Shown here: piece after piece, positions 3,001 through 6,000 of the stretch
How positions within the stretch are numbered: position 1 is the first letter of the stretch
How the letters are laid out: each line of letters opens with the position of its first letter
Program-made: the position numbers
NCBI RefSeq assembly: GCF_003334405.1
Contig: NZ_QOWM01000002.1
Length of the DNA stretch: 64,000 nt
Direction: 5' to 3' (one strand)
Source: Escherichia coli
GTDB lineage: Bacteria > Pseudomonadota > Gammaproteobacteria > Enterobacterales > Enterobacteriaceae

Positions 3001-6000
3001 GCTGATACCGCCCAGCGCCTGGAGATTGGTCGCCTGTGGGATAAACTGCCCGCTGTTGGCGGCATCAATCACCGGGAAACCCGCTTCAATGTTTAATGCC
3101 AGCCACTGTTGGCTATTGTTCAGTTCCGCTTCACCGCGCAGTTTATCGGTCAGCATATTAGCAGTAGCTTCATCGGTTACGATCAGGAAACGTTCTGCCG
3201 GGTGTTCAAACCATAGCAAAGTGGTCGCGCCTTCTTTGACTACCTGTTTTTCTTTCGAAGGCAGTTCGCTAAAGAGATTTGCCAGCGCGGCGCGCGCCTG
3301 AAAACCGGCAACACCAAGCAGCACACGCTCGTCGTCTGGCGCGATGGTCACTTTAGAGAATACCGCATATTTTTTCAGTTCAGTCAGCTGCGGTTCACGC
3401 ACGCTGCGCCGTTCAATCCATGCAAAGCCATCGCCGTCGCGGAACAGACGTAAATTGCTCCACATTTTACCTTTGGCGTCGCAATGGGCGGCGAGCAGGT
3501 GCTGATCTTCTGCCATCTGGCTGACATCTGCTGTCACCTGACCCTGCATATATTTTTCGCTGTCCGCGCCAGTAATGGTGGCAAGCGCCCAGTCATCAAG
3601 CGTCATCAGCGTCAGCGGTAAACGGGCAGAAGCCGTAGGCTGACGGGGAGGAAAAGGTGTAAAAGCCATAATAGAGTCCTGAGTTGCTTAACGGCGTATT
3701 AATGACTAATGGTAAAAGAGCTATGAGGCAATGCAAGTGCTTTCACTACGCGATCTGTGCCTTCTGCGAGGCGACTTCCAAAAAAATGAAGCCATTGAAT
3801 TGTTGTGAATTAATTTCGCGATCGCGATGGTGTTTACTGATATTCCCGTAAAAGAAGGCGAAAAACACGTTACAATAGCCGGGTACTGGATTTTCGTGAG
3901 ACAGGAAGAAGATGGACATTAACAACAAAGCCCGCATTCATTGGGCATGCCGCCGTGGTATGCGCGAACTCGATATTTCAATCATGCCGTTTTTCGAACA
4001 TGAGTACGACAGCTTAAGCGATGACGAAAAACGCATCTTTATTCGTCTGCTGGAATGTGACGATCCGGACCTGTTTAACTGGCTGATGAATCACGGTAAA
4101 CCGGCCGATGCAGAACTGGAAATGATGGTCCGACTCATCCAGACACGGAACCGGGAACGTGGTCCTGTGGCAATCTGATTTGCGCGTCTCCTGGCGCGCA
4201 CAGTGGCTTTCCTTGCTGATTCATGGGCTGGTTGCCGCTGTTATTTTACTCATGCCCTGGCCACTCAGTTACACCCCGTTATGGATGGTGTTACTTTCGC
4301 TGGTGGTGTTTGATTGCGTTCGCAGCCAGCGGCGTATTAATGCTCGCCAGGGGGAAATTCGCTTGTTGATGGACGGGCGTTTGCGTTGGCAAGGGCAGGA
4401 GTGGAGCATCGTCAAAGCACCGTGGATGATTAAGAGCGGCATGATGCTGCGTTTACGTTCTGATGGCGGTAAACGGCAACATTTATGGCTGGCAGCCGAC
4501 AGCATGGACGAAGCTGAATGGCGGGATTTACGGCGGATTTTGTTGCAACAAGAGACGCAAAGATAAAGATGACGGCAAAGCATATGCGCTAAGCCGTCAG
4601 TGAGATCAGGCGTAATGCTCTGCCATTTCGTTGAGGATTTGCTCGCACCAGCTCTGAATACGCTCGTCGCTAAGGTCATACTGGTTAGTTTCATCCAGCG
4701 CCAGACCCACGAACAGTTGCCCGTCAGCAATCACCGGTTTCGGGCTGGTAAATTCATATCCTTCCGTTGGCCAGTAGCCGACGAACTTCACGCCTTTGGT
4801 CGAGAGTTTGTCATGCAGCATACCGAGCGCATCGAGGAACCACTCGCCGTATCCCAGTTGATCGCCAAGCCCATACAGCGCAACAATTTTACCTTCAAGG
4901 TTCAGGTCGTCGAGCTGATCCCAGACGGCTTCCCAGTCTTCCTGGATTTCACCAAAATCCCAGGTCGGGATACCCAGAATGAGCACATCGTACTGCTCCA
5001 TTAATTTCGGGGAGTCGTCCTTGAGGTTATGTAAGGTCACCAGTTCTGGGCCGATAATATCGCGGATTTTTTCTGCCGCCATTTCGGTGTAACAGGTGCT
5101 GGAACCGTAAAAAAGACCCATATTCATAACGTAAGCTTCTCGATTCTGCTGTGGCTTTTGCGGCTAGTGTATCAGAATCGCTTTAGTCACGGCACAATAA
5201 GGCATAATGGATCAAATGAGTGACCATAAGGGGCGCAAGTGAAACAGGATCTGGCACGCATCGAGCAGTTTCTTGATGCTCTGTGGCTGGAAAAAAATCT
5301 GGCTGAAAATACGTTGAACGCTTACCGTCGCGATCTGTCAATGATGGTGGAGTGGTTGCATCACCGCGGGTTGACGCTGGCGACGGCGCAAAGTGACGAT
5401 TTGCAGGCATTACTGGCAGAACGGCTGGAGGGCGGGTATAAAGCCACCAGCTCAGCGCGTTTGCTGAGTGCAGTGCGCCGATTGTTCCAGTATCTTTATC
5501 GCGAAAAGTTTCGTGAAGACGATCCCAGTGCGCATCTCGCTTCACCGAAATTGCCCCAGCGTTTGCCAAAAGATTTAAGCGAAGCGCAGGTCGAACGTTT
5601 ATTACAGGCACCATTAATCGATCAGCCACTGGAGCTACGCGATAAAGCCATGCTTGAAGTGTTGTATGCTACCGGGCTGCGTGTCTCTGAACTGGTCGGA
5701 CTGACAATGAGTGATATCAGCCTGCGTCAGGGCGTGGTACGGGTCATTGGTAAAGGCAACAAAGAGCGTCTGGTGCCGTTAGGTGAAGAGGCGGTTTACT
5801 GGCTGGAAACCTATCTGGAACATGGGCGTCCGTGGCTGCTGAATGGTGTGTCAATTGACGTGTTGTTTCCCAGCCAGCGTGCGCAGCAGATGACGCGACA
5901 GACCTTCTGGCACCGTATTAAACATTATGCTGTGCTGGCGGGTATCGACAGCGAAAAGCTGTCACCGCATGTGTTGCGTCACGCTTTTGCCACTCATTTA

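Follow-up and report, generated by a model that had tools for sequence, protein, structure and literature searches.

The sdhE–ygfX pair of an Escherichia coli chromosomal contig is the known core-genome operon with a 20-nt dual-coding overlap

The 64,000-nt stretch of Escherichia coli DNA analysed here (NCBI RefSeq assembly GCF_003334405.1, contig NZ_QOWM01000002.1), hereafter the window, is a piece of the chromosome running from bglA to araE that carries two small overlapping genes, sdhE and ygfX. This locus is already known: it is the sdhE–ygfX operon of the E. coli core genome and does not differ from that of K-12. Because of its base composition, its single copy per genome, its conserved neighbours and the purifying selection acting on it, we consider with a good deal of confidence that it is a vertically inherited housekeeping operon whose two genes are probably translationally coupled, and not a mobile addiction module.

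Identity of the locus

The gene identities proposed in the initial annotation were borne out by the list of open reading frames (ORFs), by the family models NF008130 and PF07254 and by RefSeq. Positions 3700-4800 show 100% nucleotide identity to E. coli K-12 MG1655 and to many other strains. In the K-12 MG1655 RefSeq record (NZ_CP032667.1) both coding sequences (CDSs), named 'FAD assembly factor SdhE' (FAD, flavin adenine dinucleotide) and 'protein YgfX', have identical coordinates, starts, stops and 20-nt overlap. The annotation had suggested a comparison with an annotated cptAB locus, and that of K-12 gave the same two genes at the same coordinates. The 20-nt overlap that it had reported is exact to the base (3912..4178 and 4159..4566), and the operon, which it had called intact, has the geometry of the RefSeq-annotated pair.

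The features of the locus are collected in Table 1. A further ORF of 153 aa on the minus strand (4269..4730) was rejected as a mechanical ORF lying opposite two conserved genes.

Table 1. Features of the sdhE–ygfX locus (positions are those of the window)
Feature	Position	Strand	Description	Basis
ygfZ–sdhE divergent intergenic region	3670..3911	+	242 nt, 42.6% GC	gene coordinates
Shine-Dalgarno-like AGGAAG, sdhE	3903..3908	+	AGGA core 5 nt from ATG	read from sequence
sdhE	3912..4178	+	88 aa, ATG start	six-frame ORF list, RefSeq annotation
ygfX (cptA)	4159..4566	+	135 aa, GTG start, small inner-membrane protein	ORF list, PF07254, RefSeq 'protein YgfX'
Dual-coding overlap	4159..4178	+	20 nt GTGGTCCTGTGGCAATCTGA; ygfX read +1 relative to sdhE	
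YgfX transmembrane helical hairpin	4192..4344	+	residues 12-31, 36-62	hydropathy and model
YgfX soluble domain	4345..4563	+	residues 63-135: six predicted beta-strands, C-terminal helix	
Inverted repeat TGACGGC…GCCGTCA	4570..4599	.	in the 39-nt spacer between convergent ygfX and fldB	folding

Distribution, neighbours and selection

The 655-bp sdhE–ygfX pair was found in exactly one copy in every complete E. coli genome searched (5426/5426), with at least 96% identity. Its GC content and its GC content at third codon positions (GC3) resemble those of the neighbouring genes. Purifying selection is visible on both genes in the comparison with a divergent E. coli genome of 96.0% identity, where sdhE has 8 synonymous and 0 non-synonymous differences and ygfX has 16 and 2, respectively.

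Beyond the species, the YgfX family is small, with 133 representatives (clustered at 50% identity) at E ≤ 1e-3 among 1.84 billion proteins. The named members among the matches listed in the structure-based search include, from the Enterobacterales, Yersinia, Erwinia, Proteus, Providencia, Photorhabdus and Edwardsiella and the symbionts Regiella, Sodalis and Arsenophonus; Frischella, Orbus, Zophobihabitans and Photobacterium, also named among these matches, belong to the Orbales and Vibrionales.

In K-12, according to RefSeq, ygfZ lies divergent upstream of the pair and fldB convergent downstream, followed by xerD, dsbC and recJ. Synteny was compared on the contigs encoding eight diverse YgfX representatives. 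A gene of the PF03937 (SdhE) family lies directly upstream of ygfX on the same strand in the window and in all eight of these loci, and ygfZ is divergent upstream in 7/7 loci with enough flank. The gene fldB is found downstream in five of the eight, three of which also show xerD–dsbC–recJ within the contig sequence available. The order ygfZ / sdhE ygfX / fldB xerD dsbC recJ is conserved down to 29% YgfX identity. Downstream of ygfX, some distant metagenome contigs differ (L004/L005, L011, L012/L013) while keeping the ygfZ / sdhE ygfX core: L004 has a cluster with a TonB-dependent receptor after fldB, L011 has queG and L012 has rsmI. Since the core stays together while the downstream genes vary, a functional link among ygfZ, sdhE and ygfX is suggested, rather than one with fldB or xerD.

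The overlap and the start of ygfX

The 20 nt shared by the two genes encode the C-terminal residues R-G-P-V-A-I and the stop of SdhE and, in the +1 frame, the residues M-V-L-W-Q-S-(D) of YgfX. The overlap is not the product of chance or of ORF calling, because the GTG at 4159 is the first possible start past the in-frame stop at 4123, the N-terminal residues of YgfX are conserved, they form a beta-strand in the model and the same overlap recurs in four distant loci. The conserved residues are encoded in or just past the overlap and can be followed in a 38-sequence alignment down to 26% identity, S11 being nearly invariant overall and V2, L3 and W4 among the closer homologues. The AlphaFold2 model of YgfX shows residues 2-8 as a beta-strand, predicted with confidence. 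An overlap of exactly 20 nt was found in five of nine loci, window included; in the four others (L006, L007, L010 and L014), which are independent gene calls, YgfX is only 29-46% identical. Of the remaining four loci, two have overlaps of 26 and 14 nt, and in the other two the genes are 1 and 30 nt apart. Within E. coli, the overlap is without substitution in both divergent genomes checked (97.6% and 96.0% identical, the latter being the most divergent in the spread list).

It could be argued that the overlap is an annotation artefact and that ygfX really starts further downstream, with no coding sequence shared with sdhE. Points in favour are the GTG, which is among the weaker start codons, the poor Shine-Dalgarno sequence ahead of 4159 and the later in-frame start-like codons TTG 4180 (codon 8), TTG 4213 (codon 19) and ATG 4252 (codon 32). 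We nevertheless regard this as very improbable, since residues 1-11 are conserved in homologues to about 27% identity, the strand 2-8 pairs into the sheet of a confident model and the 20-nt overlap recurs among distant loci whose genes were called independently. With a start at ATG 4252, moreover, the first transmembrane helix would be lost.

A programmed +1 frameshift was considered as well, on account of database proteins of 198-217 aa in which SdhE and YgfX are 'fused', and was rejected: these are singletons (one has two members) and the junction differs nearly every time. Fused SdhE–YgfX ORFs of 166-217 aa are found in public assemblies as P0002, P0003, P0005, P0008, P0009, P0010, P0013 and P0022, of which P0005 has two members and the rest are singletons. 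Separate 1-nt deletions or assembly errors, located within the overlap or ahead of it, could explain them.

Expression signals and probable translational coupling

Judged from sequence, the 20-nt overlap is likely to be the site of translational coupling. The Shine-Dalgarno sequence of sdhE (AGGAAG) is good. As ygfX begins at a GTG 20 nt ahead of the sdhE stop and has only a weak Shine-Dalgarno-like sequence (GGA, 9 nt upstream of the GTG), ygfX would be translated mainly by ribosomes finishing sdhE. Such coupling would tie the output of YgfX to that of SdhE, and would probably keep YgfX the lower of the two. The RNA spanning the sdhE/ygfX junction folds about as stably as its shuffled counterparts (z -0.76), and no regulatory hairpin is proposed for it. 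Rfam gave no match in 3600-4700.

The promoter of sdhE–ygfX presumably lies in the ygfZ–sdhE spacer; a consensus sigma-70 scan of 3600-4700 gave no promoter-like site. At the other end of the operon, the inverted repeat between ygfX and fldB is likely a terminator hairpin, with folding energies of -21.1 and -20.7 kcal/mol (z -4.2 and -4.9). Because its loop exceeds 8 nt, the hairpin escaped a simple terminator scan. A U-run follows it on the minus (fldB) strand only, and termination of the sdhE–ygfX transcript is therefore not obviously intrinsic.

SdhE

SdhE matches the NCBIfam equivalog NF008130 along residues 1-88 of 88 (198.4 bits, cut-off 120). Its sequence also matches the PDB entries 1x6i (YgfY), 6c12_D (E 3.8e-58) and 6b58_B (E 2.3e-51), the E values spanning 1e-51 to 1e-59, and the last two both carry the name FAD assembly factor SdhE. 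These two chains come from SdhA–SdhE and FrdA–SdhE assembly intermediates. The RGxxE motif is present in the translation (R15-G16-M-R-E19), G16 and E19 being the positions mutated in PMC8621075.

The flavinylation role of SdhE is shown by the literature and by the solved complexes. In the source strain it would accordingly be expected to serve as a small soluble FAD assembly factor that aids the covalent attachment of FAD to SdhA of succinate dehydrogenase and FrdA of fumarate reductase. An E. coli ΔygfY mutant has strongly reduced succinate dehydrogenase activity and barely grows on succinate, and is viable (PMC5293155).

YgfX

YgfX matches Pfam PF07254 (Cpta_toxin) with an E value of 7.4e-50 (residues 2-131 aligned to positions 1-132 of the 133-position model), and the same family is matched by 38/38 of the aligned homologues. 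NCBIfam has no model for YgfX, and no solved relative was found. The structure was modelled by AlphaFold2 with the 38-sequence alignment, with a predicted local distance difference test (pLDDT) score of 95.1 and a predicted template modelling score (pTM) of 0.77. The model consists of a strand at residues 2-8, helices at 12-31 and 36-62, six strands within 65-112 and a helix at 118-134. Kyte-Doolittle values in 19-residue windows exceed 1.4 across residues about 12-54, and hydropathy and model together match the layout of the family, namely two N-terminal transmembrane helices and then a soluble C-terminal domain. The conserved residues of the soluble domain are W77, W82, LWL-DSM (W110, D114) and W121-R122.

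With moderate confidence, the model suggests that the soluble domain and the N-terminal strand 2-8 together form a pleckstrin homology (PH)-like beta-sandwich; the PH fold is a sandwich of seven beta-strands with an alpha-helix at the C-terminus as its cap. A Foldseek search of the PDB with the YgfX model gave no significant match, the 50 matches listed from AFDB50 were all YgfX family members, and there was no sequence-profile match between YgfX and the bPH Pfam families. The predicted domain looks like a binding module and not like an enzyme. YgfX would thus be an inner-membrane protein made up of a hairpin in the membrane and, in the cytoplasm, a small beta-sandwich with a helix as cap. We infer that its role may be that of a membrane-anchored binding partner of SdhE, and not that of an enzyme or pore.

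Toxin–antitoxin system or housekeeping operon

The initial annotation stated that the pair has been described as toxin–antitoxin (TA)-like. Such a description does exist (Masuda et al. 2012, cited by PMC8621075 and PMC3985639), and it is contested. According to it, the locus would be a genuine type IV TA module (CptA/CptB), in which the cytoplasmic domain of the membrane protein YgfX binds FtsZ and MreB and so blocks cell division and elongation, SdhE/YgfY counteracts it and the overlap keeps the antitoxin earlier and in excess. Its basis is the claim of Masuda 2012 that E. coli YgfX targets FtsZ and MreB, as summarised in PMC8621075, PMC3985639 and PMC10790755; in addition, a CptBA-like pair has been reported in A. 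baumannii (PMC8132199), growth arrest by the toxin and its neutralisation by the antitoxin being reported for both species, and the title of Pfam PF07254 is 'Membrane-bound toxin component of toxin-antitoxin system'. The locus also has the look of many TA operons, with two small co-oriented genes, the 'antitoxin' first and a short overlap, although this compact layout is also common in ordinary operons. The patchy, multi-copy or mobile-element distribution that is typical, if not strictly defining, of TA systems is not seen for sdhE–ygfX, which is a single-copy core locus of native composition with deep housekeeping synteny and no sign of mobility. Furthermore, the supposed antitoxin SdhE has an independent and structurally documented housekeeping function, and PADLOC gave no match for SdhE or YgfX.

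The genetic data point the same way. The ΔygfY mutants of E. coli (PMC5293155) and Shewanella (PMC8621075) are viable, which argues against addiction, and in Shewanella the ΔygfY phenotype is the same as that of ΔygfYX. Shewanella YgfX was neither toxic nor found to bind FtsZ or MreB (PMC8621075), and no TA phenotype was seen in Serratia by the Fineran group (PMC3985639). The interaction between SdhE and YgfX reported in Serratia conflicts with the definition of a type IV system (PMC3985639, PMC5042078), by which the two partners do not bind and the antitoxin works on the target of the toxin, whereas in Shewanella no such interaction was found (PMC8621075). A genuine TA module therefore seems to us improbable. 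The growth arrest reported upon YgfX overproduction would most simply be an effect of membrane-protein overexpression, or at most a conditional side activity, and is probably not the physiological purpose of the locus.

Within the housekeeping reading, which we favour, we would put forward a tentative role for YgfX. It is possible that YgfX is a PH-like membrane adaptor and not a toxin, which is proportioned to SdhE through the overlap and holds SdhE, and by way of SdhE also newly flavinylated SdhA or FrdA, at the inner membrane for the assembly of complex II on its membrane subunits; in that case the effects on FtsZ and MreB might be artefacts produced when a sticky binding domain is overexpressed. 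The literature and RefSeq already cover the locus with its overlap, what SdhE does and the contested TA label, and nothing at the locus departs from K-12. Only mildly new are the 20-nt coupling geometry, which is kept in distant homologues, and the high-confidence model of YgfX with its putative PH-like domain, both of which may support a function as membrane partner of SdhE and which together provide a concrete hypothesis on the role of this protein.

The Pfam name 'Cpta_toxin' and surveys of TA systems count a core housekeeping operon as TA, and TA counts are inflated as a result. In PMC10790755, for example, CptA belongs to a set of four 'toxins' that at least 80% of the isolates carry in every lineage studied.

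Other features of the window

The window contains an 8.2-kb segment (47291-55494) with genes of the ETT2 type III secretion system (PrgH/EprH, SctU, SctQ and SctT families), where MG1655 has a 1.3-kb IS2. At least 80% of the query 47000-55800 is present in 2999 of the 5426 complete genomes. As positions 1-47290 are 99.98% identical to MG1655, the source strain is, by its sequence, closely related to K-12 and has kept more of the ETT2 island intact.

In the trhA–ygfZ spacer, positions 2510-2587 (minus strand) match the Rfam family naRNA4/CssrE (RF02564), scoring 75 bits where the gathering score is 59.5. The gene prfB, encoding release factor 2 (8700-9798, plus strand), is a two-piece CDS in the K-12 reference owing to its well-known programmed frameshift, and it contains one of the 9 single-nucleotide polymorphisms (SNPs) that distinguish the window from MG1655 (position 9436).

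Comparison with known systems

Compared with sdhE–ygfX of E. coli K-12 (b2897–b2896; formerly ygfY–ygfX, also cptB–cptA), no difference exists at the locus; outside it, the window differs from MG1655 by the 9 SNPs in 1-47290 and by the ETT2 segment that replaces the K-12 IS2. Among the SdhE / Sdh5 / SDHAF2 flavinylation factors (PF03937), the SdhE of the window is a full-length equivalog with the RGxxE motif and a match to the SdhE chains that were crystallised together with SdhA and FrdA, and no difference was detected. Its C-terminal RGPVAI is dual-coded with the N-terminus of YgfX, a dual coding limited to the lineages that carry ygfX.

For YgfX, the comparison is with membrane-anchored bacterial PH-like domains. 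In the YgfX model the membrane hairpin appears to be inserted between strand 1 and strand 2, instead of preceding the whole domain.

The gene order is the same as that of sdhEygfX in Serratia sp. ATCC 39006 (McNeil, Fineran et al.), where co-transcription of the two genes, the SdhE–YgfX interaction and the nature of YgfX as a multimeric membrane protein have been described (PMC5042078, PMC3985639). Specific to Serratia are the observed prodigiosin phenotype and the regulation by FlhDC, RsmA and RsmC.

The type IV systems CbtA/CbeA (= YeeV/YeeU) are alike in being small two-gene operons with FtsZ and MreB as reported toxin targets. However, CbtA/CbeA reside in cryptic prophages, occur in several copies and have a patchy distribution, whereas sdhE–ygfX is single-copy, core and syntenic; the 'antitoxin' here is an assembly factor of metabolism that is itself conserved and, unlike in the type IV definition, an interaction between SdhE and YgfX has been reported.
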